Shown: positions 28,749-56,697 of the stretch, one piece after another | Layout: each line of letters opens with the position of its first letter | Numbering within the stretch: position 1 is the first letter of the stretch | Source: Candidatus Nomurabacteria bacterium RIFCSPHIGHO2_01_FULL_37_25 | GTDB taxonomy: Bacteria; Patescibacteriota; Minisyncoccia; Phycocordibacterales; UBA9973 | Assembly (NCBI GenBank): GCA_001786765.1 | Contig: MFTH01000008.1 | Span: 2,939-66,938 of the forward strand | Direction of reading: 5' to 3' | Length of the DNA stretch: 64,000 nt | The notes under the pieces: model-generated | What the model saw: the letters and a program-made list of their open reading frames with translations, nothing else | Database searches by the model: none | Told to the model about the DNA's origin: nothing | Program-made: the position numbers and the translations under genes

Positions 28749-29213
28749 ATGGCAATAACAGAAAAAAAAGTTTCCGCCAAAGGCGGATCCGTCTCAGGCG
28801 GAAAAAATAAGAAAGAGCCTAAAGCAATTAAAGTTGCAAAAGCGCCTAAGGTTTCAAAAATTTCTCCGCAAAAGCAGAAATCTGTTCGCGCTGATACAAA
28901 AGATGCCAAAGTCATACTGCGTATTCGAGTCCGCGCTTACGAGAGTAAAATCTTGGATGCCTCAGTTAAACAAATCATAGATACGGCGGTTCGTTATGAT
29001 GCGGTGATAGTCGGACCTGTGCCTTTACCCACTGAAATAAAAAAATATACAGTCAATCGCTCTCCTTTTATTTATAAAAACACACGAGAGCAATTTGAAA
29101 TTCGTGTTCATAAAAGGTTGATTGATATCATAAACCCAAATACAAAGACTATTGAGGCTCTTACCAATTTGTCGCTTCCTTCCGGAGTAGATATTGACGT
29201 TAAAATGCTATGA
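28749..29213 (+). CDS. rpsJ: 30S ribosomal protein S10 with ~50-aa Lys/Ala-rich N-terminal extension
   Basis: C-terminal 100 aa match S10 (ILRIRVRAYESKILD...). Confidence 0.85.
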   Translation: MAITEKKVSAKGGSVSGGKNKKEPKAIKVAKAPKVSKISPQKQKSVRADTKDAKVILRIRVRAYESKILDASVKQIIDTAVRYDAVIVGPVPLPTEIKKYTVNRSPFIYKNTREQFEIRVHKRLIDIINPNTKTIEALTNLSLPSGVDIDVKML

Positions 29214-29333
29214 TCCCGTTAGAAGCCGCGATCGCAATTTAAAATATAAACAAAATATGAGATCAGATATTAGTAAAATTAATAACATAAAATGCGAGAT
29301 ATCCGAGTTGTTCGCGATCTGCTTCTAAACGGG
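29213..29333. mobile_element. palindromic MITE-like element E1 (type A), TIR TCCCGTTAGAAGC.../...GCTTCTAACGGGA, flanked by ATGA duplication
   Basis: ~22-bp terminal inverted repeat; ATGA at both flanks; downstream ATGA is the rplC start codon. Confidence 0.75.
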
Positions 29334-29942
29334 ATGAAATTCATTTTAGCAACAAAAGAAAATATGACGGAGTATTTTTCTGAAGAGGGTGTGGTTATCC
29401 CAGTAACGATACTTTCTGCCGGACCCGTGACGGTGACTAGAATTTTTGAAAAATCCAAAGATGGTTATAACTCTGTCCAAGTGGGTTTGGAAAAAAAGTC
29501 CCGACGCCCGAAGGGGTCGGGAGCCCGACCGCAAGCGTCGGGAAAAAATATCCTAAAAGAATTTAGATTAAAATCCGCCGACAAGATAGATGCAAAAAAG
29601 GGCGACAATATTGATGTTTCGGTTTTTGTTCCGGGTGATAAACTCCAAGTCTCCAGCGTATCTAAAGGCAAAGGCTTTCAGGGTGTCGTAAAGCGTCATG
29701 GTTTTAGTGGCGGTCCGCGCACTCATGGTCAAAAACATTCTGAAAGAGAGCCGGGAAGTATCGGAGGAGGACTCCGCACTCATGTTCCAAAGGGAATGAG
29801 AATGGCTGGCAGAATGGGCGGAGATCGCATTACCCAAAAGAATATCAAAGTTGTTTCTGTTGATAAAGAAAATAATATAATGCTGGTAAAAGGAGCAATC
29901 GCCGGCAAACGCGGGACTTTAGTTGAAATAATCAGCAGGTAA
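29333..29942 (+). CDS. rplC: 50S ribosomal protein L3
   Basis: L3 signature; the listed ORF start at 29292 lies inside element E1, so start set at MKFILATK. Confidence 0.9.
29503..29546. repeat. tandem GC-rich double hairpin (CCCGAC-N-GTCGGGA x2) inserted in frame in rplC
   Basis: gtcccgacgcccgaaggggtcgggagcccgaccgcaagcgtcggga; same element at 38072-38115. Confidence 0.7.
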
Positions 29943-29946
29943 TGAA

Positions 29947-30065
29947 CCCCGTTAGAAGTCGCGATCACGATTATGGCGATAATAAAGATATGAAAAAAGA
30001 TAACACAATACAAAAAAATAAAGAAAACTCTGAAAGTGTTGTATCGCGACCTACTTCTAACGGGG
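29947..30065. mobile_element. palindromic element E2 (diverged type A) between rplC and rplD
   Basis: ccccgttagaagtcgcgatcacg ... cgcgacctacttctaacgggg inverted repeat; 3' arm abuts a GTG start. Confidence 0.65.
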
Positions 30066-30727
30066 TGGAAGCAAAAATATACAATCAAAAAGGAGCTGAA
30101 ACCGGGACGATAAGTCTTCCAGAGAAAGTTTTTGCCGTCAAGTGGAAGAGTGACTTAGTGCATCAAGTTGTGCAAAGTATGAGAAGTAATAAAAGAGCAG
30201 GGACTGCCGACACCAAAGACCGTGGAGAAGTTCGTGGTGGAGGTAAAAAACCTTGGAAGCAAAAAGGTACAGGACGCGCAAGACATGGTTCAAGCCGAAG
30301 CCCTATCTGGGTTGGTGGAGGGGTAACGCACGGTCCGCTTGCTAAAAAAAATTATAAAAGAAAAATTTCAAAGAAAATGCGCGCGCAAGCTCTTTTCTCT
30401 GTTCTTTCAAAGAAGCTTAAGGATGAAGAAATTCTTTTTGTGGACACACTTTCTATGTCTTCTATCAAAACAAAAGATGCGGTAAAAGTAGTAGAGAATT
30501 TAGCGAAAGTTACTGATTGGAAAATGAAAGATTCTTCCCTGAAGCCTCGAGTGTTGACTGCGCTTTTTGGACGCAATGAAAAAACAGAAAAAAGTTTTAG
30601 AAATATTCCAGCATTAGAATTAGTATTTTTGAAGAATTTAAATCCATTTGATGTTTTAAATTATAAATATCTTTTAATAGAAAATCCGGTCGAAAGTATA
30701 AAATTTTTAGAATCTCGAGGTCAGTAA
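30065..30727 (+). CDS. rplD: 50S ribosomal protein L4 (GTG start)
   Basis: VEAKIYNQKG... matches L4 N-terminus; upstream part of the listed ORF is element E2. Confidence 0.8.
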   Translation: MEAKIYNQKGAETGTISLPEKVFAVKWKSDLVHQVVQSMRSNKRAGTADTKDRGEVRGGGKKPWKQKGTGRARHGSSRSPIWVGGGVTHGPLAKKNYKRKISKKMRAQALFSVLSKKLKDEEILFVDTLSMSSIKTKDAVKVVENLAKVTDWKMKDSSLKPRVLTALFGRNEKTEKSFRNIPALELVFLKNLNPFDVLNYKYLLIENPVESIKFLESRGQ

Positions 30728-30733
30728 AACAAC

Positions 30734-31012
30734 ATGACAATGATAATTAAAAATCCAAGAATTACCGAGAAAGCGTCTTTTGCGCAAGAGCAAAATGTTT
30801 ATACTTTTGATATTTCTTCCGGAGCTAGCAAAACCAACAAGACTGAGATAAAGAAAGCTATCTTTGCTCTTTACAAAGTAAAGCCTTTGAAAGTAAATGT
30901 TTTACCTGTGCCAAAGAAAAATATTATGTTTAAAGGGCGCGCTGGAGTAAAAGGCGGAGGCAGGAAAGCTTTAGTTTATTTAAAAGCGGGAGATAAAATT
31001 GAATTTATTTGA
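30734..31012 (+). CDS. rplW: 50S ribosomal protein L23
   Basis: L23 signature. Confidence 0.85.
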   Translation: MTMIIKNPRITEKASFAQEQNVYTFDISSGASKTNKTEIKKAIFALYKVKPLKVNVLPVPKKNIMFKGRAGVKGGGRKALVYLKAGDKIEFI

Positions 31013-31092
31013 CACTGAGGCATGACACTGAGGTACTTAGGTCTTGCCTCAGTGAAACAGTGAAAAGAAACACAATAAAACAATAAACAATT

Positions 31093-31932
31093 ATGAAAAC
31101 ATATAAACCAACAAGTAAATCACGAAGACAAATGACCCATGTGCTTTACAGGGAACTTTTGACGAAGTCACAACCGACCAAGTCTCTCACTTATGGTTTT
31201 AGACGTTCTGTCGGGAGGAATAGCAGAGGACGCATCACTGTGCGACATAAAGGTGGAGGACACAAACGTCTTTATCGCGAGGTTGATTTTTTATATAATA
31301 AAAAAGAAATTCCGGCTATAATAAAATCTATCGAATATGACCCAAATCGTTCAGCTTTTATTGGGCTAGCTATTTATAAAGACGGAGAAAAGAGATATGT
31401 TATATTGCCTAAATCTATAAAGCCCGGAGACTCTTTTATTGTTTCGGAAAAGGCGCCTCTCTCAGTCGCTAATAGACTTCCTCTTAAAAATATCCCAGTC
31501 GGGACTTTTGTTTATAATATTGAAATACAACCAAATGGTGGAGCGAAGATAGGTCGTTCCGCAGGAATTTTTGCGCAAGTAGTTGCTAATGCTGATGGAT
31601 ATACAAACATTAAAATGCCTTCAACTGAAGTCCGTAAAATAAATGAAAACTGCTTCGCGTGTATCGGTACTGTTTCAAACGAAGAACATCATCTTGAAAA
31701 TTATGGTAAAGCTGGACGAAGTCGCTGGAAGGGAATACGACCGACAGTGCGTGGAACTGCGATGAACCCTGTTGACCATCCGTACGGAGGTGGAGAAGGC
31801 AGACAAGGACGCGGAACAAAACGTCCAAAGACTATGTGGGGCAAAGTAACCGGCGGAAGAAAAACCCGCAGTCCAAAGAGATACTCAAATGTCTTTATTG
31901 TTTCTCGTCGTAAGACTGGGAAGAATAAATAA
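31093..31932 (+). CDS. rplB: 50S ribosomal protein L2
   Basis: L2 signature (GRNSRGRITVRHKGGGHK...). Confidence 0.95.
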   Translation: MKTYKPTSKSRRQMTHVLYRELLTKSQPTKSLTYGFRRSVGRNSRGRITVRHKGGGHKRLYREVDFLYNKKEIPAIIKSIEYDPNRSAFIGLAIYKDGEKRYVILPKSIKPGDSFIVSEKAPLSVANRLPLKNIPVGTFVYNIEIQPNGGAKIGRSAGIFAQVVANADGYTNIKMPSTEVRKINENCFACIGTVSNEEHHLENYGKAGRSRWKGIRPTVRGTAMNPVDHPYGGGEGRQGRGTKRPKTMWGKVTGGRKTRSPKRYSNVFIVSRRKTGKNK

Positions 31933-31970
31933 ATTTAAAATTTGTATCCTTTTTTGCGCTGTGGTATAAT

Positions 31971-32270
31971 TTGAATCTTATGAAAAAATTAACACTCAAA
32001 GAAATAAATTTACCAGTTACAATATTTAAAGAAGGCAAGAGTTATGTGGCGTATAGCCCTGCTCTTGATCTTTCTACTTGCGCTTCCACTTACAAAAAAG
32101 CGCAAACTAATTTTTCCGAGATTGTTGGAATTTTTATTGAAGAACTTGTAGAAATGGGCACACTGGATGTAGTGCTCCGAGAATTAGGCTGGCAGAAAAT
32201 AAAATCTAACTGGCAACCGCCAGTTGTTGTTTCAAATTATTTTCAACCGATGAATCTTTCGTATGCCTAA
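31971..32270 (+). CDS. hicB: HicB-family antitoxin
   Basis: 99 aa; PVTIFKEGKSYVAYSPALDLSTCAST HicB N-domain pattern; overlaps next ORF. Confidence 0.5.
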   Translation: MNLMKKLTLKEINLPVTIFKEGKSYVAYSPALDLSTCASTYKKAQTNFSEIVGIFIEELVEMGTLDVVLRELGWQKIKSNWQPPVVVSNYFQPMNLSYA

Positions 32271-32493
32271 GAAGCAAAATGTAACGAATAGGCAGTTTCA
32301 ACAATTTTTAATATATGTCGGTTGTTCTTTTAAAAGATCTAAAGGAGATCATTTTGTATATGCGCGTTCCGATTTAATACGCCCTATTATAGTTCCTAAA
32401 GATAATCCTCTACCTCAATTTATTATAAGAAATAATCTTAAATTGCTTGGAATGTCTTGGGAAGAATTTTTCAATATAATTGATAGAATATAA
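32263..32493 (+). CDS. hicA: HicA-family toxin
   Basis: 76 aa; GDHFVY...IIVPKDNPLPQFIIRNNLKLLGMSWEEF matches the HicA/YcfA core. Confidence 0.55.
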   Translation: MPKKQNVTNRQFQQFLIYVGCSFKRSKGDHFVYARSDLIRPIIVPKDNPLPQFIIRNNLKLLGMSWEEFFNIIDRI

Positions 32494-32498
32494 ATTAA

Positions 32499-32568
32499 AC
32501 CCGCAGTCCAAAGAGATACTCAAATGTCTTTATTGTTTCTCGTCGTAAGACTGGGAAGAATAAATAAG
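32499..32568 (+). repeat. 70-bp direct duplicate of the rplB 3' end (identical to 31863-31932)
   Basis: aacccgcagtccaaagagatactcaaatgtctttattgtttctcgtcgtaagactgggaagaataaataa present twice, bracketing the hicBA pair. Confidence 0.85.
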
Positions 32569-32609
32569 ACCTCACCTAAACCAAAAATTGTTTTTCCACA
32601 TTTTGCTGT

Positions 32610-32890
32610 TGCATTATTTCAAATATAATGTTAAAAAAACAAGCAGAAAGGGGGTGATGGTGTGGCAGTGATGCAAGTAAAAAGAACTCTTGCTAGAGCA
32701 AGGAAGAAAAAGGACCGCTTCTACTGGCATAAGAAGCGGCAGGCAACACGCTTAAGGAAAAGGAGGGTGAAAAGATGATACTGTTGTGGGGCTCTCTATT
32801 AAGGGGCCCCACTGTTGTTTTTACTCAAATATTTGACATTTTACTCTTATTTGCTACTATAAAACCAAGCTCGATTCGAGCTTTTTGTTT
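32610..32890 (+). ncRNA. candidate structured GC-rich RNA ending in a terminator hairpin
   Basis: no ORF; local GC well above genome average; several perfect hairpins (CCGCTTCT/AGAAGCGG, GGGGCCCC); AAGCTCGATTCGAGCTTTTT terminator at about 32866-32890. Confidence 0.2.
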
Positions 32891-32903
32891 ATATAAATTA
32901 TGA

Positions 32904-33024
32904 TCCCGTTAGAGATTATTCGGTTAAAATTTAACGGTTTATATAATGTATATACTAAAGTGAAATTATTAGTTTTAATAAGAAGACACAACGGAAATCT
33001 AAAGATTTCCTATCTCTAACGGGA
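32904..33024. mobile_element. palindromic element E3 (type B) upstream of rpsS
   Basis: TCCCGTTAGAGAT ... ACGGAAATCTAAAGATTTCCTATCTCTAACGGGA; ATGA on both flanks. Confidence 0.75.
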
Positions 33025-33377
33025 TGACAAGATCAATCAAAAAAGGCGTATATGTGGATGAAAGGCTTTTAAAAAAGATTGCCGGCAAAAATCCTCTTAA
33101 TACAGGAACCATAAAAACATGGAAGAGAGCTTGTGTTATATCTCCCGATATGCTCGGTTTTACTTTTGGTGTTTATAATGGCAAGGTTCATGTGGATGTC
33201 TTTGTTACTGAAGACATGGTGGGGCACAGATTGGGAGAATTTTCTCCAACAAAGAAATTTACAAAACACGGCGGAAAGATGCAGAAAGAACTCGAACAAA
33301 AGAAAATGGAAGCTGAAATAAATGCCGCCAAAGGGGCGACTGCGGCCGCGGCTGACGCCAAGGGCAGTAAAAAGTAG
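33024..33377 (+). CDS. rpsS: 30S ribosomal protein S19 (Lys/Ala-rich C-terminal extension)
   Basis: S19 core motif. Confidence 0.9.
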
Positions 33378-33383
33378 GAATGA

Positions 33384-33504
33384 ATCCCGTTAGAAGCCAC
33401 GATCGCAATTTGAAAAGAAACAAAAATATGAAATCAAGCATTATAAAAATTAATAATATAAAATATCAGACATGCGAGTTGATCGCGATCTGCTTCTAAC
33501 GGGA
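33384..33504. mobile_element. palindromic element E4 (type A) between rpsS and rplV
   Basis: ~85% identical to E1; flanked by ATGAA/ATGAA. Confidence 0.75.
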
Positions 33505-33896
33505 TGAAAGCATTTTTAAAAAATTACAGACAGGCTCCGAGGAAAGTTCGCTTGGTTGCGAGTCTCTTAAAGGGCAAGAGTGTTGTGGAAGCCCTAGCCG
33601 AGCTTGATTTTTTAGCCAAACGCGCAGGACTGCCTATAAAAAAGCTTTTAATTTCCGCAGTTTCCAATGCAAAATCTATGGGAATTCAAACAGATAATTT
33701 ATTTATAAAAGAATTGCGAGTAGATAAAGGCATAACAATGAAAAGAATGATGCCGGCGGCTATGGGCACAGGACACAGGATAAATAAACGCACGAGCCAT
33801 TTGAATTTGTTGCTCGCAGAAAAAGTTTTAGCAGTTAAAAATTCTCCAAAAAGGACAGTCCTTAAGAGAGTTTCCCCAAGGACCGTCCTTAAGTAA
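33504..33896 (+). CDS. rplV: 50S ribosomal protein L22
   Basis: L22 signature. Confidence 0.9.
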   Translation: MKAFLKNYRQAPRKVRLVASLLKGKSVVEALAELDFLAKRAGLPIKKLLISAVSNAKSMGIQTDNLFIKELRVDKGITMKRMMPAAMGTGHRINKRTSHLNLLLAEKVLAVKNSPKRTVLKRVSPRTVLK

Positions 33897-33900
33897 TAAC

Positions 33901-34614
33901 ATGTCAAAAATAGTTCATCCATACGCCCATAGATTAGTAATACTTCGAGACTGGAAAAGTCGCTGGTTTGCTGATTCGAAAAAATACGTTTCTTATTTAA
34001 AAGGGGACGTCCTTATACGTCAATATTTAGAAAAGAAATTGCGTGGCATGTATATTTCTTCAATTGAAATTGAAAGAAGCCGAAAAGCGACTAGGTTTAT
34101 AATCAAAACTTCTCGACCCGGTCTTATCATAGGCAGGAATGGCGAAGGAGCAACAAAATTAAAAGAAGATATTTTGAAAAAAATGGATAAATTGAAACTT
34201 CCAAAGCCGGAAGATTTCAAACTTGAAATTATTGAAGTAACAAATCCAGAAGCCGATGCCGCGATTGTGGCATATATGATTGCCGAAGGGTTAGAGAAAA
34301 GATTGCCATATCGTCGTGTTATTAAAACAATTATTGAAAAAGTTATGGCGGCGCGCGGAGTAGAAGGAGCGAGAGTGGTTCTCTCAGGCAGGTTGGGAGG
34401 AGCTGACATTGCTCGCACAGAAGAGCTCAAACGCGGGTCTATTCCGCTTCAGAGTTTCCGCGCTGATATTGATTTCAAGCGCGAGCGCGCCACTTTGTCT
34501 TATGGTGTTGTCGGCATAAAGGTTTGGATTTATCGCGGTAAAATTTTTGCCGACAAGAATATGAAAAATACAAAAAAGAACGAAATATTAGAAAATAAAA
34601 CAAAGTCTGATTAA
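33901..34614 (+). CDS. rpsC: 30S ribosomal protein S3
   Basis: KH plus S3-C domains. Confidence 0.9.
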   Translation: MSKIVHPYAHRLVILRDWKSRWFADSKKYVSYLKGDVLIRQYLEKKLRGMYISSIEIERSRKATRFIIKTSRPGLIIGRNGEGATKLKEDILKKMDKLKLPKPEDFKLEIIEVTNPEADAAIVAYMIAEGLEKRLPYRRVIKTIIEKVMAARGVEGARVVLSGRLGGADIARTEELKRGSIPLQSFRADIDFKRERATLSYGVVGIKVWIYRGKIFADKNMKNTKKNEILENKTKSD

Positions 34615-34618
34615 TTTT

Positions 34619-35047
34619 ATGTTAGTACCTAAAAAAGTAAAATTTAGAAAATGGCAGACTATGCGTAGTAATCCTAAAAAGACTTCGCCCGACACTCGCG
34701 GGACAAAACTTTCTTTTGGCTCTTATGGTCTAAAATCAGAAAGTCAAACACGCATCAAGTCGACCCAGATTGAAGCTGCCCGAAAGGTAATAGCCCGAAC
34801 ACTTACTAAAGCCGGTAAGTATTGGATTCGTATTTTCCCAGATCGTCCTTATACTTCTAAAGCCGCAGAGATGGGTATGGGAAAAGGTAAAGGGGATCCG
34901 CAAGGATATTGTTTTGATGTTTTTCCCGGACGCATCATTTTTGAAGTGGATGGAGTAAATGAAAAAATCGCCAAGGAGGCGCTTAGAAAGGCTGGTAGTA
35001 AATTGCCAATCTCTGTTAGAATTATGTCCAGAACGCATAAGCAGTAG
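34619..35047 (+). CDS. rplP: 50S ribosomal protein L16
   Basis: L16 signature. Confidence 0.9.
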   Translation: MLVPKKVKFRKWQTMRSNPKKTSPDTRGTKLSFGSYGLKSESQTRIKSTQIEAARKVIARTLTKAGKYWIRIFPDRPYTSKAAEMGMGKGKGDPQGYCFDVFPGRIIFEVDGVNEKIAKEALRKAGSKLPISVRIMSRTHKQ

Positions 35048-35062
35048 GTTGCGAAAAAATAT

Positions 35063-35263
35063 ATGAAAAATAAAAAAGAAAACTTGAAAGATATGAAAAA
35101 AGACGAACTCAACAAAAAGCTCGCTGTTTTACGAGAAAATGCAAGAGTTATAAGGTTTAAGTCTGAAGGTTCAAAATCAAAAAATGTGAAAGAACTTTCA
35201 GTTTTAAGGAAAAACATAGCTCGGATTTTAACGGAAATCAACCGTCAAAAAGTTATGAAGTAA
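35063..35263 (+). CDS. rpmC: 50S ribosomal protein L29
   Basis: size and position. Confidence 0.8.
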
Positions 35264-35277
35264 TTTTTATAAAAAAA

Positions 35278-35535
35278 ATGACAACAAAAATAGAAAGAAA
35301 AAATAAAAAAGGAAAAGGTAGCATCTTAAACGGGGTGGTGGTTTCAGACAAAATGGAAAAGACTGTTGTTGTAACTGTATCCAGATTTATCAAGCATCCC
35401 TTGTATGGTAAATATTATAAAGTGAGCAAAAAATACAAAGCGCATGACGAGGAAAATAAATATAAAGTGGGAGATAATATAGAGATAGTTGAGACAAAAC
35501 CAATTTCAAAAGACAAACATTTTGCCGTAATTTAA
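35278..35535 (+). CDS. rpsQ: 30S ribosomal protein S17
   Basis: S17 motif. Confidence 0.85.
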
Positions 35536-35665
35536 CGAACGAAGTGAGTATAAATTACGAGCATCCCGCCCCACTTTTAACATTAACATTTATTATCAAA
35601 TAAAAATTTTACAAACAATGAATTTTAAGTTAGTATCAAATTAATTATTAAAAGTGGAGCGGGAT
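35531..35665. mobile_element. palindromic element E5 (type C; arms CATCCCGCCCCACTTTTAA / TTAAAAGTGGAGCGGGATG)
   Basis: ~135-bp repeat, ~85% identical to E6, directly after the rpsQ stop. Confidence 0.7.
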
Positions 35666-35706
35666 GACGATTTTTATAGTCATTTCATTCCTTAAAAATC
35701 AGTCAT

Positions 35707-36078
35707 ATGATTCAAGCAGGCACATGGGTAAAAATAACAGATAACGCCGGAGGCACTGTAGGCAAAGTGTTCAAGATTTTAGGGTCTTCTAAAAAAAGAT
35801 ATGCTTCTTTGGGTGAACAAGTGATTATTGCCGTAAAGGTGGCAAGTCCCAGAAAGGGAGTTAAAAAGAAAGATGTGCATCAGGCGGTCATTGTGCGTAC
35901 CAGAGCTGCCTTTAGGAGAAAGGATGGATCTTATATTCGTTTTGATGATAATGCTGTGGTTCTTATAGAAAAAGGAAAGCTTGATCCAAAGGCTGGGCGT
36001 ATTTTCGGGCCAATTCCGAGAGAGCTCGCCGAGAAGGGATTTCAGAAAATTATTTCTTTAGCGCAGGAGGTCCTGTAA
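35707..36078 (+). CDS. rplN: 50S ribosomal protein L14
   Basis: MIQ...L14 signature. Confidence 0.9.
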   Translation: MIQAGTWVKITDNAGGTVGKVFKILGSSKKRYASLGEQVIIAVKVASPRKGVKKKDVHQAVIVRTRAAFRRKDGSYIRFDDNAVVLIEKGKLDPKAGRIFGPIPRELAEKGFQKIISLAQEVL

Positions 36079-36083
36079 ATTAA

Positions 36084-36215
36084 TGAACGGAGTGAATATA
36101 ATTTACAAGGATCCCGCCTCACTTTTAACACTAACATTCATAGATCAATTAAAATTTTACAAGCAATGAACTTTAAGTTATTATAAAAATTAAGTATTAA
36201 AAGTGGGGCGGGATG
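36084..36215. mobile_element. palindromic element E6 (type C) between rplN and rplX
   Basis: paralogue of E5. Confidence 0.7.
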
Positions 36216-36250
36216 CTCAAATTTGAAATTCGCTTCGCTCATAACAAATT

Positions 36251-36469: not shown

Positions 36470-36490
36470 ATAGAGTAAGAAGGGATGAAA

Positions 36491-36611
36491 TCCCGTTAGA
36501 GATCCTTCAGTTAAAATAATCAATAGAGTAAAAATATTATGATAAGTTTAAATAAATTATTAATAGTTATAAAAAGAACGGAAATCTAAAGATTTCCTAT
36601 CTCTAACGGGA
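36491..36611. mobile_element. palindromic element E7 (type B) between rplX and rplE
   Basis: same TIRs as E3/E8; flanked by ATGAAA/ATGAAA. Confidence 0.75.
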
Positions 36612-38071: not shown

Positions 38072-38115
38072 CCCGACGTAAAGTCGGGGTCCCGACCGAA
38101 AGCGTCGGGATTAAC
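38072..38115. repeat. tandem GC-rich double hairpin (second copy) between rpsH and rplF
   Basis: ccccgacgtaaagtcggggtcccgaccgaaagcgtcggga; second half near-identical to the rplC copy. Confidence 0.7.
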
Positions 38116-48052: not shown

Positions 48053-48062
48053 ACATTAATTT

Positions 48063-48819: not shown

Positions 48820-49251
48820 TTGTTTCTGCTTCTCTCTTATTGCTATAATACTGGAATGGACAGAAGAAAGCTCATAAAAACTTTAATATACCTTATTTTT
48901 TTAATTTTTTTAGTAAATTTTTTCGCAAATAAATTCTACTGGTATTCTTCTATTTGGTATTTTGATATGATTATGCATTTTTTGGGCGGATTTTGGGTTG
49001 GGCTTGCCTATTTCTATATTTTTCTACTCCAAAATATGTCTAGTAGATTAATTTTCAAAATATTATTTTCAGTATTAATTATTGGTGTCGGCTGGGAAGT
49101 ATATGAAATCTTAGTGAACGATATTCTTGCGCAAAATCCTTTTAATTATATAGACACTGTGTCTGATTTATTTTTTGACTTATTCGGCGGTTTATGTGCT
49201 ATTCTTTATTTATGGATCCCGTTAGAGATTAAAAAGTTTAATATAAAATAA
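48820..49251 (+). CDS. hypothetical membrane protein
   Basis: 143 aa, 4 TM; its last codons overlap the 5' arm of element E8. Confidence 0.3.
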   Translation: MFLLLSYCYNTGMDRRKLIKTLIYLIFLIFLVNFFANKFYWYSSIWYFDMIMHFLGGFWVGLAYFYIFLLQNMSSRLIFKILFSVLIIGVGWEVYEILVNDILAQNPFNYIDTVSDLFFDLFGGLCAILYLWIPLEIKKFNIK

Positions 49252-49335
49252 AAAATATATTTATGATCAAATTGATTAAAATATTAATAGTAATTAAGGG
49301 TACGGAAATCTAAAGATTTCCTATCTCTAACGGGA
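49216..49335. mobile_element. palindromic element E8 (type B) upstream of the beta-CASP gene
   Basis: TIRs identical to E3/E7; ATGGA/ATGGA flanks. Confidence 0.75.
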
Positions 49336-50699: not shown

Positions 50700-50716
50700 T
50701 ATGTTATACTAATATT

Positions 50717-51340
50717 ATGGATTCTTCATTAAATTTTCCAAACAAACATGGACACAGCCAGATAAAGATTTGCGTTTCAGGCGCGGCTGAGACTGGTCAT
50801 TGCGGGATAGATGCATTAGAAAAAGCAAAAGAACTAGGACGTGAAATTGCTCGGCAAGGAACAGTGCTCGTCACAGGAGCAACCACTGGATTCCCACTTT
50901 GGGTGGCGATGGGATTCAAAGAAATAGGTGGAATGTCCATCGGCTTTTCTCCAGCGGCGTCTGAGAAGGAACATGTTGAAGTTTATAAACTTCCGCTTGA
51001 TTATATGGATTTGATGATTTACACTGGTTTCGGTTATCCTGGACGCGATCTGCTACTGACTCGTTCTGCTGATGCTGTGATATGCGGTTGTGGGCGTATC
51101 GGCACTATCCACGAATTCACTGTTGCATTTGAAGATGGGAAGCCAATCGGTATTTTTGAAGGACCATGGGAAATGGGAGATCAAATTAAAGAGATTGTGC
51201 AAAAAAGTCATCGTCTCAATGCGAAAATTGTTACGAGCGATGACCCTAAGAAACTTGTGGAAGATATTATTGTTTTAGTTAAGAAAGATAAAATAAAAGA
51301 ATACAAAATTACAAAAGATTCTGTTTCGGATCCAAATTAA
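50717..51340 (+). CDS. TIGR00725/SLOG (LOG-like Rossmann) family protein
   Basis: ICVSGAAETGH...LVTGATTG pattern. Confidence 0.45.
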   Translation: MDSSLNFPNKHGHSQIKICVSGAAETGHCGIDALEKAKELGREIARQGTVLVTGATTGFPLWVAMGFKEIGGMSIGFSPAASEKEHVEVYKLPLDYMDLMIYTGFGYPGRDLLLTRSADAVICGCGRIGTIHEFTVAFEDGKPIGIFEGPWEMGDQIKEIVQKSHRLNAKIVTSDDPKKLVEDIIVLVKKDKIKEYKITKDSVSDPN

Positions 51341-51355
51341 GAAACAATTTGAATT

Positions 51356-51700
51356 TTATTTAACACTTTCTAAAATTCTAGCAAAAGTGGCAGGATGATG
51401 TTCGGCGAAGTCGGCGAGAATTTTACGGTCAAGTAAGATTTTTTTCTTTGTTAATTTGTCAATCAATTTCGAATAAGTCATTCCGAGCTCGCGGGCGCCG
51501 GCGTTTATCTTAATATTCCAAAGTTTTCTATTGTGCGACTTCTTGTCTTTCCTATGCGCGAAAGCATAATTTCCAGCATGTAAAAGAGCTTCTTTTGCTT
51601 GGCGTTCTTTGGTGCTTCGTCCATGACGAAAGCCTTTAGTTTGTTTTAAGATACTTCTGCGTCTTTTTAATGCGTGTACTCCTTTTTTTACTCTGGTCAT
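51356..51700 (-). CDS. rplT: 50S ribosomal protein L20
   Basis: L20 signature. Confidence 0.9.
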   Translation of the reverse strand: MTRVKKGVHALKRRRSILKQTKGFRHGRSTKERQAKEALLHAGNYAFAHRKDKKSHNRKLWNIKINAGARELGMTYSKLIDKLTKKKILLDRKILADFAEHHPATFARILESVK

Positions 51701-51732
51701 ATTAGTAGTTAAGTTATAAAGTTTATAAAGTC

Positions 51733-51927
51733 TTAAGAAAAGGGAAGCAAGTGGCTTTTTGGTTTGTTTTTAATAACAAAACTTTGACTATTTTTGCCGG
51801 CGAGTTGTTTAGCGCGCGACTGTTTTGCATTAAAATGATTAAATCCCGGCTTGCGAGAAATTATTTTTCCGTTTTTCGTGACTTTCAGTCTCTTGGAATA
51901 CGATTTATTTGTTTTCATTCCTTTCAT
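51733..51927 (-). CDS. rpmI: 50S ribosomal protein L35
   Basis: 64 aa, basic, conserved position. Confidence 0.8.
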   Translation of the reverse strand: MKGMKTNKSYSKRLKVTKNGKIISRKPGFNHFNAKQSRAKQLAGKNSQSFVIKNKPKSHLLPFS

Positions 51928-52430
51928 TTTGCTTTTTCTATTGTTGTTGTTAAACCTTTTGGGCCTTTTTTATAAGCATCGGATATTTTGTAATTTTCTG
52001 TAATCAAGTGCAATACTCTGTCTAAACGTTCTCTTAAAAATTTTTCATCCATATACTTCGCGCGTCCGGCAAGGAAAAGTTCAACTTTGACTCTGTGTCC
52101 TTCTTTTATCCACTTTGAAGCAGTTTTCGCTTTTAATTCCAAATCATGATCTCCGGTTCCTATCTTTATTTGAATTCCTTTCGTTTCTGTTTTGTTTGCG
52201 CCAGCTTTAGATTTTTTCAATTTTTTGTTGGCTTCGTATTGATATTTGCCAAAATCCATTATTTTCGCTAATGGGGGATTAGAATTTGGAGATATTTCAA
52301 TTAAGTCCAAGCCTTTACTTTGCGCTAATTCCAATGCGTTTTTTATGCTCAAAACACCTAGATTTTTGTTTTCACTGTCTAGAACCCGAAGTTCTGTCGC
52401 TCGTATTTGATTGTTTATTCTTTCTCGCAA
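51924..52430 (-). CDS. infC: translation initiation factor IF-3
   Basis: IF3 N and C domains; true start may be a non-ATG codon. Confidence 0.85.
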   Translation of the reverse strand: MRERINNQIRATELRVLDSENKNLGVLSIKNALELAQSKGLDLIEISPNSNPPLAKIMDFGKYQYEANKKLKKSKAGANKTETKGIQIKIGTGDHDLELKAKTASKWIKEGHRVKVELFLAGRAKYMDEKFLRERLDRVLHLITENYKISDAYKKGPKGLTTTIEKAK

Positions 52431-52523
52431 GTATTAATGTAAAGTAAATTTTAACTACTTAAATATAGCTTACTTAGAACTTAAAGTCAATGTGTGGTGG
52501 GGAACACTGTTATTTGTATTTTT

Positions 52524-54248
52524 CTAATATACTTCTTGCTGATAACATCGCTCGCAGTAAATTATCGGAGCATAGTTTTCATCATAGACTGTTTCTACTT
52601 CTGTTTTACATTTAGAACAAAAGCGTTTGATAGCGCGAAGCGGTGGGCGTTTTTCGAGTCGTCGCTTGTGTCTGATGTTAAAGCAAACTCTCGGAAGAGG
52701 TAAATCCATTCGGCGATAAAAAGTGAGTTCATTTTGAGTTATTCGATAGGCTCCCGTTGAATACTGGCTATCTTTCTCCGCGCATTCAATAATTTCACCT
52801 AAAATAGAATCATCGACTTCTTGGATAGTCTCGGGCAATTCTCCGCTTCGTTTGGTTGTCTTATAATTTCTTTTTTCTTTATCTTTCCATCTGTACCCTT
52901 TTGCGAGCGCTTCCTCTTTAGAAATTGGATATAAATATATGACGGAAGTTTCATTATAGGCAAAAGCTGAGAGCTCATCAGGGAAATGTTCTCCGAATCT
53001 GTATTCTATTCCTCTATTATCTACGAAAGGCATATCGTTCATGTGTTTTATAATTTTTGGCACTAACTCCTCGTATTCTTCTTTGCTGTATTTTTTATTC
53101 AAAATTGAGTACTGACCTTTCTTTAACCCAATACACCCAAAACAATAGCTTGAACTAGGACATGAATCACAATATAAAAGATCGTGCGCGCTCATCCAAC
53201 ATTGTGTAGAAAAAGATATTCGAGAAGAATTAATACCGACATTTAATGAATCATATATTAACTCTGAATTATTTCCCCATTGATAATAATCCATACAATC
53301 TTGCGCATCAAAAACTCCCAAAAGATATTTTCCATCTTTTACATTTCGACATTCAAAAGATTGAGTCACATTTTTACAATTCAAAAACCAATCACCAGAA
53401 ACATTTTCAGATTTTATAGACATTATTGCCCGTTTCGGGAATTTTTTTCTGAATTTGGTAAATTCTATTTCCATCGCTTTTATTCCAGTAAAAGTATTTA
53501 ATTTTAATTCTTTTAATTTCTCAAGATATTCTTCTTTTGTGTATTTTTTATTGAAAATAAAATATTCTTTGTTAACTAAATTCACACAACCAACGCAGTT
53601 AGAACAATTACGGCAAGCGTACAAAAACATGCTATCTCTACACTCTATGCTGTCTTTTGAGAATTTTGTTTTATAACATTTATTACAATCTATGCATTCA
53701 TAACATAAATCGCATTGAGATATATTATAACAATCTACACAGTCCGTTAAGTTAGTCGCATTGTAAATATACATAGAATCAAGACTATTACTGGCTCGAA
53801 AAACCATGTAAGAATTCTTCATATTATGAACACGATGCGTGTATTCGCTGTTTATTGAAAATCCTTGTCTGACCAAAGCCATTTTAGGAACTTTGTTTCT
53901 TAACTCTAAGAATTGTTGGAAAAATGGTTTAGAAAAATCATAATCCATGCCGTATTGATACGGGTCCCATTCATCGGAATACCATTTAGAAGTTTCATAT
54001 ACCGGGAAAGGCGCATCTTTGTCATACATGCTAAAAATCTGTTCCCCGGTAAAATCACATTTACGTTTATAAAGCGCTAACTCATTCGCGCTAACTAATC
54101 GTCTAATAAGTCTGCATTCCGGGCACCACGTCGGTGGTGGAACTTTTATTTTTTCGTAAAACAAAAAATCGTCAGGTTCAATCGAAAAATCCTTTTTACA
54201 ATTTTGACAGGTTCGCGTTGTGTTTGTTAAATGTGTTTTCTGTTTCAC
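52524..54248 (-). CDS. Cys-rich protein with internal tandem duplication (multiple CxxC clusters, zinc-ribbon ends)
   Basis: 574 aa; two ~200-aa repeats each ending ...C.GC.....YxIxNKKYxKEEY; terminal CxxC...CxxC. Confidence 0.4.
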   Translation of the reverse strand: MKQKTHLTNTTRTCQNCKKDFSIEPDDFLFYEKIKVPPPTWCPECRLIRRLVSANELALYKRKCDFTGEQIFSMYDKDAPFPVYETSKWYSDEWDPYQYGMDYDFSKPFFQQFLELRNKVPKMALVRQGFSINSEYTHRVHNMKNSYMVFRASNSLDSMYIYNATNLTDCVDCYNISQCDLCYECIDCNKCYKTKFSKDSIECRDSMFLYACRNCSNCVGCVNLVNKEYFIFNKKYTKEEYLEKLKELKLNTFTGIKAMEIEFTKFRKKFPKRAIMSIKSENVSGDWFLNCKNVTQSFECRNVKDGKYLLGVFDAQDCMDYYQWGNNSELIYDSLNVGINSSRISFSTQCWMSAHDLLYCDSCPSSSYCFGCIGLKKGQYSILNKKYSKEEYEELVPKIIKHMNDMPFVDNRGIEYRFGEHFPDELSAFAYNETSVIYLYPISKEEALAKGYRWKDKEKRNYKTTKRSGELPETIQEVDDSILGEIIECAEKDSQYSTGAYRITQNELTFYRRMDLPLPRVCFNIRHKRRLEKRPPLRAIKRFCSKCKTEVETVYDENYAPIIYCERCYQQEVY

Positions 54249-54401
54249 AGAATTATTCTAAGTAAAAATTTATAATGAATCAAAATTAAAGTCTTTTAAT
54301 AAGCTTACCTATTATTTTTCATAAAGAAAAAATTCTATATACTCTAGTCCGTGTAAAGTTTCAGTTCTAATAGGCCAATCTGATCCGGGATCAACTAGAG
54401 G

Positions 54402-55202
54402 TTAATTAATATGTTTTTGATTTTTTTCATTTACTCCTAAATTTATTACTCCAACAATATTTGGTCCCAATTTTATTCTTGGAGTTTCTCCTATCTCAAA
54501 GTTTGCGTTTACTCCTTTTGGTATTGGTTGTAACAAACCCAATAAATTTTCTCTAGTGCTTTTTGTGTTGTCTTTTTTGATTGGTTCTGATGTGTGAGGA
54601 ATATAAAGTTTTTCAGGTTTGAGACGGACAACAATACACAGACCTTTATCCGAACCCTTTCCTGTTGTAGTAAATTTATCTTCTTCATTATAGCCACCTA
54701 AAAACCAATCTTCACCTTCCACTCCATCAACAACAAATTCACCAGATTTAACTTTATTTAGAAGTTCTGCACCTCTTAATCTTTTGCTGTCATTAGCCCA
54801 GAAAAATCTCATAACATTCCCGCTAACTTCCACTGGCCTCTGTCCATAATTTTTTAGATCTACAGGTATCAATGTATTTTTACTACTATTTATATCCTTC
54901 AACATATCATCAGAAACATTGCTGTTGTGAAAACTTATTTCTACCCCAGTTTGCGCAAAAAAACTTCTTACAGACCAGCTCAAAGAGCCTAAACCTCCTT
55001 TAGTGATATCTATTGCGGGAAAATCTTTTTTATTTACAATAATATTAACACCTTGAGTTAATTGGTTCGGATTTATAATCACAGGTTTTTCTATTGCTAT
55101 ATCAGGACCAATCCAAATATTACCGAGCTTTTCTAATTGCTCAACTGATTTTTCACGTTCAGATAGTTGTTTTAAGTTTTCTGGGGTAAATGAGCCTAGC
55201 AT
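54402..55202 (-). CDS. hypothetical; weak resemblance to dCTP deaminase/dUTPase beta-barrel superfamily
   Basis: 266 aa; C-terminal third loosely alignable to Dcd (LGLL...IKLGPNIVGVINL); low confidence. Confidence 0.25.
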   Translation of the reverse strand: MLGSFTPENLKQLSEREKSVEQLEKLGNIWIGPDIAIEKPVIINPNQLTQGVNIIVNKKDFPAIDITKGGLGSLSWSVRSFFAQTGVEISFHNSNVSDDMLKDINSSKNTLIPVDLKNYGQRPVEVSGNVMRFFWANDSKRLRGAELLNKVKSGEFVVDGVEGEDWFLGGYNEEDKFTTTGKGSDKGLCIVVRLKPEKLYIPHTSEPIKKDNTKSTRENLLGLLQPIPKGVNANFEIGETPRIKLGPNIVGVINLGVNEKNQKHIN

Positions 55203-55309
55203 TTTTATTTTTTAATATATAAACGTAATACATTTGAATTATAACAGTCTTGCGTCGCTAAGGCTATGCAGGACTTACTGCTTATTTTTGTACCAAAAAT
55301 CAAAAAGCT

Positions 55310-55342
55310 CTCTTTTGAAAAGAGAGCTTTTTACGCTAAATT
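55310..55342. terminator. bidirectional terminator downstream of ssrA
   Basis: AAAAAGCTCTCTTTTGAAAAGAGAGCTTTTT. Confidence 0.6.
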
Positions 55343-55377
55343 TCTTGTGCTAGCACTGCGAAGCTTTAGCGAAGCAG

Positions 55378-55771
55378 TGGAGATGGGGGGAAATGAGCCC
55401 CCGTGCAGAAGGTTTTTGTCAAGAAGTCTACATACATAGCGCGTTTTTTGTTTTAAATTAAAAAATTCAGAAACGCGCGAAATATTTTTTAATCGAGCTT
55501 CTGTGTTTCGCCCCGACGGCGAAGCTGTGTCGGGACTATCCCGATAATATTATGCCTCTACTCATATATCGGAAGTCTATGAGAGAGACACGAGTTACGC
55601 GTAAGCGGAAACTCGAGCGAAAGCGAAGTCATTCATACTGAAGTATGGAGAGACTGCTTTCACCTTAGAAGCTAATTTTGCAATTAACATTTGAACGAAG
55701 TTTTACGAGATTACGTTCATGCTCGGTATGCGTCAATAACAAATGGCCTACTGTCTATGCCTTGCATCCCC
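55378..55771 (-). ncRNA. ssrA: tmRNA (ssrA), CCA not encoded
   Basis: minus strand: 5' GGGGATGCAAGGCATAGACAG pairs with 3' ...GGGGG-CTCATTT-CCCCCC-ATCTCCA, same acceptor pattern as B. subtilis tmRNA (GGGGACG/CGTCTCC); ~394 nt; next to smpB. Confidence 0.6.
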
Positions 55772-55786
55772 ATTTTATAAAAAATG

Positions 55787-55886
55787 TTGGAACATAACTT
55801 TTTCCGGTACGGATTTTTTGAAGCTTAAAAAATCCTGAAGTTCTCGGCTCGTCAGCCTCGAAACCCCTGCAAAAGTTATGTTCCAA
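55787..55886. repeat. copy 2 of ~95-nt structured repeat, closed by 16-bp inverted repeat TTGGAACATAACTTTT/AAAAGTTATGTTCCAA
   Basis: core identical to 20394-20430; lies between the smpB 3' end and the ssrA 5' end. Confidence 0.7.
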
Positions 55887-55897
55887 TATTTTTTTTG

Positions 55898-56344
55898 TCA
55901 ACGTTCTTTGTATTCTCTTCTTATTTCACGAAGAGTATCACGCTTTTTTAAAGTTTCACGTTTATCGTATTTTTTCTTACCCTTAACTAAAGCTATCTCT
56001 ATTTTGATTTTTCTGTTTTTATTATACACTGAAATCGGCACAATTGTCAAACTCTTGTTTTTCTCACTGCCGGCGAGTTCAAAGATTTCTTTTTTAGTTA
56101 GTAAAAGTTTTCTGTTGCGCAGTGGATCATAATCTTTTGGCGTATTTTTGACTTGATATGGCGGTATGTTGGAGTTTATCAAATATGTTTCTCCTCCCCG
56201 AACAGTAACAAAAGCTCCTTCGAGAGACATTTTTCCCCCTCTTATAGATTTTACCTCCACGCCCAAAAGCTCAATACCTGCTTCGTACTTCTCCAAGATT
56301 TCATAATTAAAATACACTTTTCTATTTTCCGCATAATGGGGCAT
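55898..56344 (-). CDS. smpB: SsrA-binding protein
   Basis: SmpB signature. Confidence 0.9.
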   Translation of the reverse strand: MPHYAENRKVYFNYEILEKYEAGIELLGVEVKSIRGGKMSLEGAFVTVRGGETYLINSNIPPYQVKNTPKDYDPLRNRKLLLTKKEIFELAGSEKNKSLTIVPISVYNKNRKIKIEIALVKGKKKYDKRETLKKRDTLREIRREYKER

Positions 56345-56418
56345 AATTTAATCTTAGCATAAATTTCCTCAGTTTTTTCTTGTTGTTTTGTGTTTTTTAT
56401 GGTACTCTCTAAAGATGG

Positions 56419-56697
56419 ATCCCGTTAGAGATTACTTATGTTTTATTACACATACATATTAAAAAGCAAGAAGGACGGTAAAATTTACACGGGACATACG
56501 CAAGATCTACGGAAGCGCCTAAATCAACACAATAAGGGTTTATCGACATATACGAAAGGCAGAGGCCCATTTGTTTTGATATATTACGAAGCGTGTTTAT
56601 TAGAAAGTAAAGCGAGGTCGAGGGAATTATACTTAAAATCGGGAATGGGTAAGCGTTATCTTAAAAGTAGATTGGGCGCTTCCTATCTCTAACGGGA
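56419..56697 (+). mobile_element. full-length palindromic element E9 carrying a GIY-YIG gene (putative autonomous parent of the type B MITEs)
   Basis: 5' arm ATCCCGTTAGAGAT and 3' arm CCTATCTCTAACGGGATG identical to E3/E7/E8; the loop is filled exactly by an 84-aa ORF. Confidence 0.75.
56438..56692 (+). CDS. GIY-YIG nuclease family protein (COG2827-like)
   Basis: YTYILKSKKDGKIYTGHTQDLRKRLNQHN GIY-YIG core; stop codon TAA lies inside the 3' TIR. Confidence 0.7.
   Translation: MFYYTYILKSKKDGKIYTGHTQDLRKRLNQHNKGLSTYTKGRGPFVLIYYEACLLESKARSRELYLKSGMGKRYLKSRLGASYL

Follow-up and report, generated by a model that had tools for sequence, protein, structure and literature searches.

How can essential genes carry insertions that end exactly at their start codons? 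This question is raised by a 64-kb stretch of DNA (the window) from Candidatus Nomurabacteria (Paceibacterota, Candidate Phyla Radiation, CPR), which spans the S10-spc operon of ribosomal protein genes together with its neighbours. The best matches of its S19 protein among 185,579 species genomes were metagenome-assembled genomes of Nomurabacteria and Paceibacterota, with 85–91% identity. The window contains seven palindromic elements, five of them within the S10-spc operon. We consider it likely that they are very small transposable elements of CPR bacteria (Patescibacteria), in which the largest form carries a nuclease gene only, the other forms are internally deleted and non-coding, insertion occurs at start codons, and the open reading frame (ORF) of the element is coupled to the host gene.

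The seven elements, of types A and B, had the termini (T/C)CCCGTTAGA...TCTAACGGG(A/G). Their bounds are counted including the terminal T..A or C..G pair.

29214–29334, plus strand: E1, short type A element of 121 nt between rpsJ and rplC; flanking words ATGA and ATGA, duplication TGA (29211–29213 and 29335–29337)
29947–30065, plus strand: E2, short type A element between rplC and rplD, terminal pair C..G; flanking words ATGAA and GTGGA, flanks TGAA and TGGA (one mismatch)
32904–33024, plus strand: E3, short type B element abutting the rpsS start; flanking words ATGA and ATGA, duplication TGA
33385–33504, plus strand: E4, short type A element between rpsS and rplV; flanking words ATGAA and ATGAA, duplication TGAA
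36491–36611, plus strand: E7, short type B element between rplX and rplE; flanking words ATGAAA and ATGAAA, duplication TGAAA
49217–49335, plus strand: E8, short type B element, adjoining a beta-CASP/RMMBL nuclease gene at its start; flanking words ATGGA and ATGGA, duplication TGGA
56420–56697, plus strand: E9, long form of 278 nt abutting the ftsH start; flanking words ATGGA and ATGAA, flanks TGGA and TGAA (one mismatch)

All seven were found where the initial annotation had placed them, with the flanking words it described. It had counted them in a family of nine; the remaining two (E5 and E6) have only the core in common with the seven and form a separate composite palindrome. Exact matches to CCCGTTAGA numbered 13 in the 64 kb, every one an element terminus, and the two-arm pattern had no match in 100 shuffles. 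The six short elements measured 119–121 nt. The 14–15-bp terminal inverted repeat read YCCCGTTAGAGAT/ATCTCTAACGGGR in type B and E9, and ...AGAAGC in type A. The short elements folded into long hairpins (RNA minimum free energy −32 to −37 kcal/mol, z-scores −3.2 to −5.4; DNA z-scores −3.6 to −4.1), whose 14-bp basal stem takes in two bases of the downstream AUG, A and U. In E3, E7 and E8 the 3' 38 nt were identical, in agreement with the identity claimed earlier for the type B 3' arms, and held a small hairpin of their own (GGAAATC-TAAA-GATTTCC), which suggests a bound site or gene conversion.

The base following CGGG was the first base of a gene in all seven cases (rplC, rplD, rpsS, rplV, rplE, the beta-CASP nuclease gene and ftsH), and the downstream copy of the flanking word was indeed the host start codon throughout. 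Several upstream copies had also been said to carry the stop codon of the preceding gene. This applied to E1 only, in which the 5' duplication copy is the TGA stop of rpsJ and the terminal A plus TG is the start of rplC. The 5' ATG of E2 shares one base with the rplC TAA, an upstream ORF (48820–49251) extends 12 codons into E8, and E9 sits between the divergent genes smpB (minus strand) and ftsH (plus strand). Two ORF calls in the window were N-terminally extended, that of rplC (29292–29942, from an ATG inside E1) and that of rplD (29942–30727, from the ATG at 29942 and through E2).

For the two imperfect flank pairs, those of E2 and E9, perfect TGGA/TGGA pairs were found elsewhere at what are apparently the same sites. 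The corresponding copy at the rplC-rplD junction of locus L053 had a T..A terminal pair and ATGGA/ATGGA flanks. Loci L169 and L195 each carried a nuclease-bearing copy of 276–277 nt, flanked by TGGA/TGGA, at a start codon whose sequence, ATGGATTTTAAT, opens with the same bases as ftsH. At the rplC-rplD junction the termini thus differ between E2 (C..G pair, GTG start) and the L053 copy (T..A pair, ATG start), through either a compensatory change of the pair or independent insertions.

Empty sites were sought by comparing orthologous S10-spc junctions in 80 related genomes, in which most junctions were 1–30 nt long. The test proposed with the initial annotation, that empty sites should show a single pre-insertion word, came out in favour of insertion: the rplC, rplD, rplV and rplE junctions each held one ATGRA, in the contexts ATGAAATT (rplC), ATGGAAGCA (rplD), ATGAAAGCA (rplV) and ATGAAACAT (rplE). 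Empty rplX-rplE junctions read ATGAAACATTTA, and the empty rpsJ-rplC site in L001 and L020 was a single ATGA overlap. Some relatives had the same element at the same junction (E4 in L007 and L009; E1 and E2 in L053), and the E3 site was also occupied in the metagenome loci L145 and L104. In L002 a different hairpin family occupied the rpsS-rplV junction, which indicates that sites are hit repeatedly; in the majority of relatives this junction was empty. Identical or nearly identical copies were found at different genes: L117 and L158 carried 194-nt copies of 100% identity before unrelated genes, and one 7-kb contig had two copies of 95.7% identity before two genes. Other hairpins were seen in the same setting. 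A family of about 76 nt, TATACTTGTCCCGT...ACTGGG directly followed by ATG, stood at four different junctions (L020, L025, L034 and L053) with no duplication visible, and variants with other termini, TCCGGTAGTAG... (L002, 10355–10490) and TCTCGTTAGAG... (L066, 6289–6422), had ATGAA duplications.

To obtain copies without selection for flank or start codon, a metagenome collection was scanned with the 3' arm alone (TTCCTATCTCTAACGGG), and the 113 unique copies having both ends were taken as the sample. The bases before CCCG and after CGGG were complementary in 108 of the 113 (T..A 84, C..G 23, G..C 1). With this terminal pair assigned to the element, a duplication of 3–7 nt (mode 4) was present in 73 of the 113 copies. 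Twelve of these 73 lay away from ATG (for example TAAA, TTTA, CTTA, TTCA and TAGCA), where permutation gave a mean of 3 (P < 0.001). Among the 77 copies that abut an ATG, 60 were flanked by an exact direct repeat 4 nt or longer (permuted flanks: mean 26, maximum 36). In copies with an upstream ATG 5 nt ahead of the T, the two bases that follow this ATG matched those downstream without exception (AA/AA 29, GA/GA 13, CG/CG 2, GG/GG 1), and AA was never paired with GA across the two duplication copies. Rare words were duplicated too (ATGCG, ATGCAA, ATGGG and ATGAATAA); the upstream copy is therefore not part of the element. The earlier claim of mobility with target-site duplication, in the manner of a transposable element of the miniature inverted-repeat type (MITE), was borne out, since the flanking bases covary with the target in the 113 copies and the permutation controls were exceeded.

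The best reading of these data is an element YCCCG...CGGGR and a T-N-N-A-like target tetramer, in most cases a start's TGAA or TGGA. Read at the sequence level, the last A (or G) of the element and the duplicated TG together rebuild the host ATG (or GTG). An alternative parsing, with the T borne by the element and a duplication consisting of ATG plus 1–5 nt, was dropped, as the terminal-pair parsing also recovers the duplications away from ATG. In the basal stem, G·U and A·C mismatches were too few to tell constraint on the RNA from constraint on the DNA, on an informal look at a sample in which the 3' arm is fixed by the search pattern. The family thus has inverted repeats, a target-derived duplication, dispersed copies that are polymorphic or recent, and a longer coding form, as defines MITEs and related inverted-repeat elements.

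This coding form is E9. The initial annotation had not noted that it contains an intact gene.

56438–56692, plus strand: GIY-YIG nuclease ORF of 84 aa inside E9 (Pfam PF01541, E = 3e-18)

The ORF begins 6 nt past the 5' repeat, and its last codons and TAA are the 3' repeat (...TCC TAT CTC TAA CGGG ATG), with the stop 4 nt before the ftsH ATG. The protein has PF01541 as its single domain and belongs to a family with lengths of 84–95 aa. More than 1180 homologous clusters were found; nearly all of the 120 listed were 84 aa long, with 83–95% identity, and the listed homologues came from Nomurabacteria, Paceibacterota and Woesebacteria, many on very short contigs. Two unrelated contexts showed the same architecture, ATGGA-TCCCGTTAGAGAT-ORF-ATCTCTAACGGG-ATGGA, one preceding a TraG/VirD4-like gene and the other a gene for a 196-aa protein without assigned function, in both cases with the host start 4 nt past the nuclease stop. 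In other contexts fused versions of 92 aa occurred, again with the host gene beginning 4 nt after the stop.

The metagenome copies fell into four size classes.

about 85 nt: 7 copies
about 120 nt: 46 copies
about 190 nt: 20 copies
about 277 nt (272–284 nt): 40 copies, bearing the GIY-YIG ORF

Of about 124 hits, none with these termini was longer than 285 nt, including within 6 kb upstream of orphan 3' arms; the orphan arms were contig ends or had 5' repeats with two mismatches at about 275 nt. The ORF was intact (at least 80 codons) in 37 of the 40 long copies. Motifs conserved in at least 90% of the nuclease ORFs were Y-x-Y, YTG, R, H, YYE and RE, and the median ratio of nonsynonymous to synonymous substitution rates (dN/dS) was about 0.19, with dS close to saturation. 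Some short forms kept about the first 85 nt of the nuclease gene, which marks them as internal deletions of the long form; in many others the internal sequence was unrelated to it.

The nearest solved structures were the UPF0213 proteins 1ZG2 and 1YWL, with function not assigned. Plasmid-borne homologues at 36–48% identity included B. subtilis YazA and a Sinorhizobium protein (39% identity), whose gene has hairpins on both sides that resemble NTS, the repeats of Neisseria that were described, with other SRM hairpin repeats and the Ssn nucleases, by Chenal et al. 2025 (PMC11893778). Y6, Y17 and E63 were conserved in 37 sequences of the CPR protein; the SsnA mutants concern Y6, Y17 and E64, a match by residue number only. 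More distant GIY-YIG genes (44–46% identity) with different inverted repeats of their own were seen at L066 (9460–9890, with a tandem non-coding copy next downstream) and L048 (6100–6440); the architecture is therefore wider than the CCCGTTAGAG family.

The association with start codons was strong in the metagenome sample. An ATG stood directly past CGGG in 77 of the 113 copies (68%), against a background of 1.6%, and an ORF of at least 50 codons followed in 72 of the 77. Five more copies abutted GTG or TTG starts. A further five were inverted relative to a gene on the opposite strand (CAT directly before CCCG), four of them short and one a nuclease-bearing copy of 274 nt (L119). The host genes, named from their N-terminal sequences alone, were diverse and housekeeping-like: murJ, infC, pheT, dnaB, rpsS, secD, topA, a release factor gene, rpsB, rplQ, dnaJ, proS, priA, ftsI, ftsA, mraY, ftsH, murG, ruvX, dprA and others. 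The window has about 127 non-coding TGRA tetramers and 28–47 gene starts of the form ATGR(A), and all seven copies were at starts. Uniform insertion into TGRA with intragenic copies removed would put about 20–27% of copies at starts, compared with about 70% in the metagenome sample. This excess implies either a target choice beyond the tetramer or selection against intergenic insertions as well. Whether start-codon specificity reflects target recognition or the survival of the sole harmless insertions has thereby become a testable question. Tandem elements were seen in L137, L173, L141, L144 and L165, where the flank of one element is the end of another (for example ...CGGG ATGAA TCCCGTTAGAAGCCG); the rebuilt start codon is thus open to a second insertion.

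Twenty-seven long-copy ORFs crossed the 3' repeat as ...KRFLSLTG and stopped at a TGA or TAA taken from bases 2–4 of the rebuilt start, giving an (A/G)TGA or GTAA overlap. Five long-copy ORFs and that of E9 used another frame (...GASYL), ending at a TAA that lies in the repeat, 4 nt ahead of the ATG. In eight long-copy ORFs the first codon was the duplicated upstream ATG (MNPVRD...), the host gene's original start, and the 92-aa versions began likewise; other nuclease ORFs started 14–25 nt within the element. Overlaps of the NTGA type, the commonest coupling motif, and very short spacers are arrangements known to permit translational coupling, through reinitiation or through the unfolding of a structure at the downstream start (PMC12548453).

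Among the short elements, E3 and E4 each had a 39-codon ORF from the 5' ATG (32900 and 33380, respectively) to a TAA in the 3' repeat, in E3 4 nt before the rpsS ATG. In E2 the ORF from the 5' ATG (29942) continued in frame into rplD as an N-terminal extension of 41 codons, and the L053 copy was also in frame. The ORF from the upstream ATG stopped early in E1, E7, E8 and E9; that of E7 had only 4 codons (MKSR), with a TAG inside the 5' repeat. For a broader test, 43 short copies (about 85, 120 and 190 nt) with a 5' ATG were compared with 86 control frames. The ORF was open through the element in 9 of the 43 and in 1 of the 86 controls. A through-reading ORF therefore failed as a universal rule, and the difference is an enrichment only.

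Taken together, these observations led us to propose the following course of events. The sequences themselves show its frame. The largest form is an element of 272–284 bp, made up of a 14–15-bp inverted repeat and a single GIY-YIG gene that fills it. Copies insert into a T-N-N-A-like target, mostly TGAA or TGGA at bases 2–5 of a gene, and 3–7 nt are duplicated. The original ATG, with the initiation context of the host, stays upstream, and a rebuilt ATG follows the element. Ribosomes starting at the upstream ATG would enter the 5' arm and melt the 14-bp stem that buries the host AUG, after which the host protein would be made by termination-reinitiation or by coupling of the unfolding type. Such coupling would explain how essential genes tolerate the inserts. 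The nuclease may act as SsnA does, binding the folded repeat in single-stranded DNA (ssDNA) and nicking a few nt beyond the stem, after which repair by the host would finish the movement. SsnA-like cleavage a few nt from the hairpin is compatible with where the duplication lies, 3–7 nt outside the stem. Copies of 85–200 nt, to which the proposal assigns eight of the nine palindromes initially listed for the window, would be mobilised in trans or be relics.

More tentatively, and with somewhat less than an even chance of being right, we suggest that these are autonomous transposons of a class unrecognised in prokaryotes, which at about 277 bp would be the smallest known. Their sole protein would be an ssDNA nuclease of the Ssn type, and they would take over a start codon and hand translation back through the rebuilt ATG. 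A new class of prokaryotic transposon would be defined if mobility proves to be the work of the nuclease. If the suggestion is true, repeats of the Ssn/NTS type in Neisseria, and in other bacteria rich in SRM repeats, would descend from the same kind of selfish element; Rickettsia and Wolbachia are listed among the bacteria with many such repeats (PMC11893778).

Several points weigh against the proposal of a start-codon transposon coupled to its host gene. About 30% of the metagenome copies lay away from start codons, the start-codon enrichment could in part come from purifying selection and not from targeting, and the sample comes from a single subfamily defined by an exact 17-mer. Duplications of varying length, here 3 to 7 nt, are atypical for a dedicated transposase. 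Among the copies with C..G termini, 14 of 23 had no direct duplication, and four copies had inverted flank repeats (TAAAC/GTTTA, TTCAC/GTGAA, CTCGC/GCGAG and TTTAC/GTAAA), which might come from inversion between copies or from hairpin-templated repair. The early stop in 34 of the 43 short copies with a 5' ATG means that coupling by read-through is not universal. A hydrolytic GIY-YIG enzyme without strand-transfer ability would need host functions or a partner for integration, and no conventional transposase (DDE, HUH, serine or tyrosine recombinase) was found in the elements, in a search that covered the 64-kb window and the metagenome fragments. The published SRM search motif HGTCWY...RNCYNB had no match in the window. 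Nuclease activity, transposition and coupling in this family are all deduced from DNA sequence.

Some of these points would fit ordinary MITEs that are moved in trans by a conventional transposase, for example of the DDE type, with the GIY-YIG ORF as a secondary invader, for instance a homing endonuclease, or as a passenger in the loop of some copies. Inverted repeats with duplications of 3–5 bp are typical of such elements, a GIY-YIG hydrolase alone is incapable of strand transfer, the interior of many short forms is unrelated to the nuclease gene, and a transposase could be encoded at a distance from the DNA that was searched. We nevertheless regard this explanation as unlikely, because no copy longer than 285 nt was found, the repeats themselves supply the first and last codons of the nuclease ORF, this ORF is intact in nearly all long copies, and several short forms are deletion derivatives that keep the 5' 85 nt of that gene. 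It is also rather unlikely, in our view, that the elements constitute a domesticated system of the Ssn/SRM type, with hairpins that benefit the host as marks at the starts of important genes, a nuclease that is not the mobility enzyme but cuts incoming or exposed ssDNA beside them, as in the transformation of Neisseria by SsnA/NTS, and repeats that spread by recombination or another route. Such a system is favoured by the role of SsnA in modulating natural transformation and by the clustering of its repeats around certain genes (PMC11893778), as well as by the 3' ends of E3, E7 and E8, where identity over 38 nt in otherwise diverged elements suggests constraint, and by the copies at the same junction in relatives, which suggest long persistence. 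Against it stand the transposition-like spread, seen in duplications derived from the target, in empty sites and in copies that are identical at unrelated genes, and the presence of the nuclease gene inside the repeat pair at many loci, each with its own duplication. The distribution over Nomurabacteria, Paceibacterota and Woesebacteria at 88–95% identity likewise looks selfish or horizontal. Domestication and mobility are not mutually exclusive.

The initial annotation had favoured homing to the overlapping stop/start ATGA junctions of translationally coupled genes. E1 lies exactly on the rpsJ/rplC overlap, which is the empty state in L001 and L020, and the concentration of copies in the S10-spc operon points the same way, but most targets proved to be plain start codons, among them those of dozens of unrelated genes and of genes that come first behind divergent promoters (ftsH at E9), and E1 was the only element on an ATGA overlap. 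The 5' copy has no upstream stop in E3, E4, E7, E8 and E9, the empty rpsS-rplV, rplC-rplD and rplX-rplE junctions are spacers of 1–30 nt, and in the metagenome sample the gene after the element is of many kinds and the DNA before it often non-coding, which makes this form of homing very unlikely. Locally evolved regulatory RNA hairpins (RNase III sites or ribosomal protein attenuators) in place of mobile DNA are hardly credible as an explanation. The hairpins are stable and bury the AUG, and several unrelated hairpin families end directly at an ATG in relatives; on the other side are the duplications, the presence/absence polymorphism, the nuclease-bearing form, the identical copies at loci unrelated to each other, the copies in reverse orientation and the absence of an Rfam family match. 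A regulatory side-effect of the hairpins is possible. A self-splicing or bulge-helix-bulge (BHB) intron was dropped as a candidate on account of the size, the absence of an Rfam match (a scan of the window at gathering thresholds returned tmRNA and tRNAs only, and no intron or ribozyme family) and the duplications at the DNA level. A translational bypass ("hop") is unnecessary, since the element lies outside the host ORF.

Of the described small palindromic elements, the Correia elements of Neisseria (100–160 bp) have terminal inverted repeats, form a hairpin in the transcript, make a short duplication and lie near genes with which they are co-transcribed. They differ in duplicating TA and in having no association with start codons, whereas the end base of the CPR family rebuilds the host ATG. 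We know of no parent element made of a nuclease gene alone for bacterial MITEs such as Correia. The IS200/IS605 insertion sequences and the REP/RAYT systems, which PMC11893778 discusses, are also very small, recognise a hairpin in ssDNA, have a short target next to one end and give rise to abundant palindromic derivatives. They use an HUH tyrosine transposase, have subterminal hairpins, make no target duplication and are at smallest about 700 bp; the CPR element, in contrast, has about 277 bp, a GIY-YIG ORF in place of an HUH Y1 transposase, duplications and terminal inverted repeats. Rickettsia palindromic elements are tolerated through in-frame translation within host proteins and sit in coding regions with no start-codon rule; to our knowledge they have no nuclease-bearing parent. 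E2, in frame into rplD, resembles them, as does a GC-rich hairpin pair in frame in rplC.

The Seg proteins of T-even phages are similar in that a GIY-YIG gene is wedged between conserved essential genes, often without a promoter, with ORFs that overlap the neighbours and suspected translational coupling (PMC2988022). They differ in having more than 200 aa, DNA-binding domains, one cognate site, no inverted repeats or duplication and recombination-dependent homing (PMC2988022). The CPR protein, with 84 aa, a single domain and dozens of sites, lacks the DNA-binding domain and the one long site of a homing endonuclease.

The nearest described system is the Ssn/NTS pair of nuclease and hairpin. 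The initial annotation knew of no described counterpart; this held for insertion at, and duplication of, the start codon, of which no published account was found, but not for the combination of a small GIY-YIG protein with hairpin repeats, published in 2025 (PMC11893778). Ssn proteins are single-domain GIY-YIG proteins of about 94 aa (cd10448) that bind hairpin repeats solely as ssDNA, the Neisseria NTS being CGTCATTCCCGCG..CGCGGGAATC; SsnA acts on ssDNA only, where it binds the hairpin and makes its cut in the variable flank, a few nt upstream (PMC11893778). Repeats lie on both sides of 42% of the Ssn homologues, an arrangement that the authors call "identical to" an insertion sequence while proposing domestication for the control of transformation (PMC11893778). 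The CPR protein is likewise single-domain, of about 90 aa, with the catalytic positions Y6, Y17 and E63/64 (by residue number). Its gene lies between palindromic repeats that have a CCCG/CGGG core, and many solo repeats adjoin genes but rarely lie inside them. The arrangement differs, however, in that the CPR gene is bracketed by the halves of one long-range inverted repeat and the Ssn genes by two self-contained short hairpins. The role proposed for Ssn is control of transformation and not mobility, which was raised as a hypothesis only, and the text of that paper does not mention target duplications, start codons, Patescibacteria, empty-site comparison or overlap of the ORF with the host start (PMC11893778). 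In the literature searched, no start-codon-targeting MITE, bacterial GIY-YIG transposon, start-codon duplication or translational piggy-backing was described.

The duplications, the empty sites and the identical copies before unrelated genes provide sequence-level evidence that small systems of GIY-YIG nuclease and palindrome are, or recently were, mobile. They also point to a splicing-free way of sitting in front of essential genes: the first bases are duplicated, the A of the ATG is supplied and the ORFs are coupled. This strategy would stand beside introns, inteins and translational bypass as a means of neutralising an insertion. The family, which is widespread in CPR bacteria, also explains a common annotation problem in their genomes, namely gaps of 120 nt, false N-terminal extensions (as in the rplC and rplD ORF calls) and hundreds of mini-proteins named "excinuclease ABC subunit C"; the N-terminal extensions are likely annotation artefacts or real extensions. 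Natural pairs of nuclease and hairpin may further serve as a resource for ssDNA tools.

The two palindromes set apart from types A and B were treated as a related but separate family, type C, of about 170 nt.

35536–35706, plus strand: E5, type C composite palindrome that fills the rpsQ-rplN spacer; inner hairpin 35562–35666 (ATCCCGCCCCAC...GTGGAGCGGGAT), including CGGGATGACG
36079–36250, plus strand: E6, type C composite palindrome that fills the rplN-rplX spacer; ATGAACGG at 36084, outer arms are inverted repeats ending ...GCTCAT

With types A and B they share only the TCCCG/CGGG core. The inner hairpin ends 38–43 nt upstream of the start codon, and a conserved tail reaches the ATG. Relatives of E5 filled other junctions up to the ATG in L009, L035, L036 and L051. 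The CGGGATGACG of type C is the reverse complement of the 5' half of NTS, and only type C has a GTCAT-CCCG half-motif. Tandem pairs of small GC-rich hairpins (CCCGAC-loop-GTCGGG) occurred at 29500–29542, in rplC, and at 38072–38109, just past the rpsH stop. The rplC pair is in frame, with KSRRPKGSGARPQASGKN standing where relatives have a loop QKKERVSKGRAGAMKGAFYKT. These tandem hairpins look like short-loop repeats of the NTS/SRM type, the one in rplC being translated as in Rickettsia palindromic elements.

Next to E9, the tmRNA gene (minus strand, 111.9 bits) adjoins smpB (minus strand) at 55375–56344, and a 29-nt inverted repeat with 90% complementarity lies between the two (55779–55807 and 55866–55894). 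ARAGORN predicted a tRNA-His at 11047–11118 that Rfam, at the gathering threshold, did not return. Upstream of E3, the rplB-rpsS junction (31933–32899) has an inserted HicB-like ORF (31971–32270) and a HicA toxin ORF (32263–32493), the latter with a Pfam match under the gathering threshold (24.5 vs 27 bits). After the HicA ORF the 3' end of rplB recurs as a direct repeat of about 70 nt (about 31863–31932, again at about 32497–32566), and a very basic ORF of 35 codons (32671–32778) has a GGGGGTGA motif upstream. This junction was long (72–8512 nt) in nearly all of roughly 65 relatives in which it could be measured, which marks it as an insertion hot spot of the clade.

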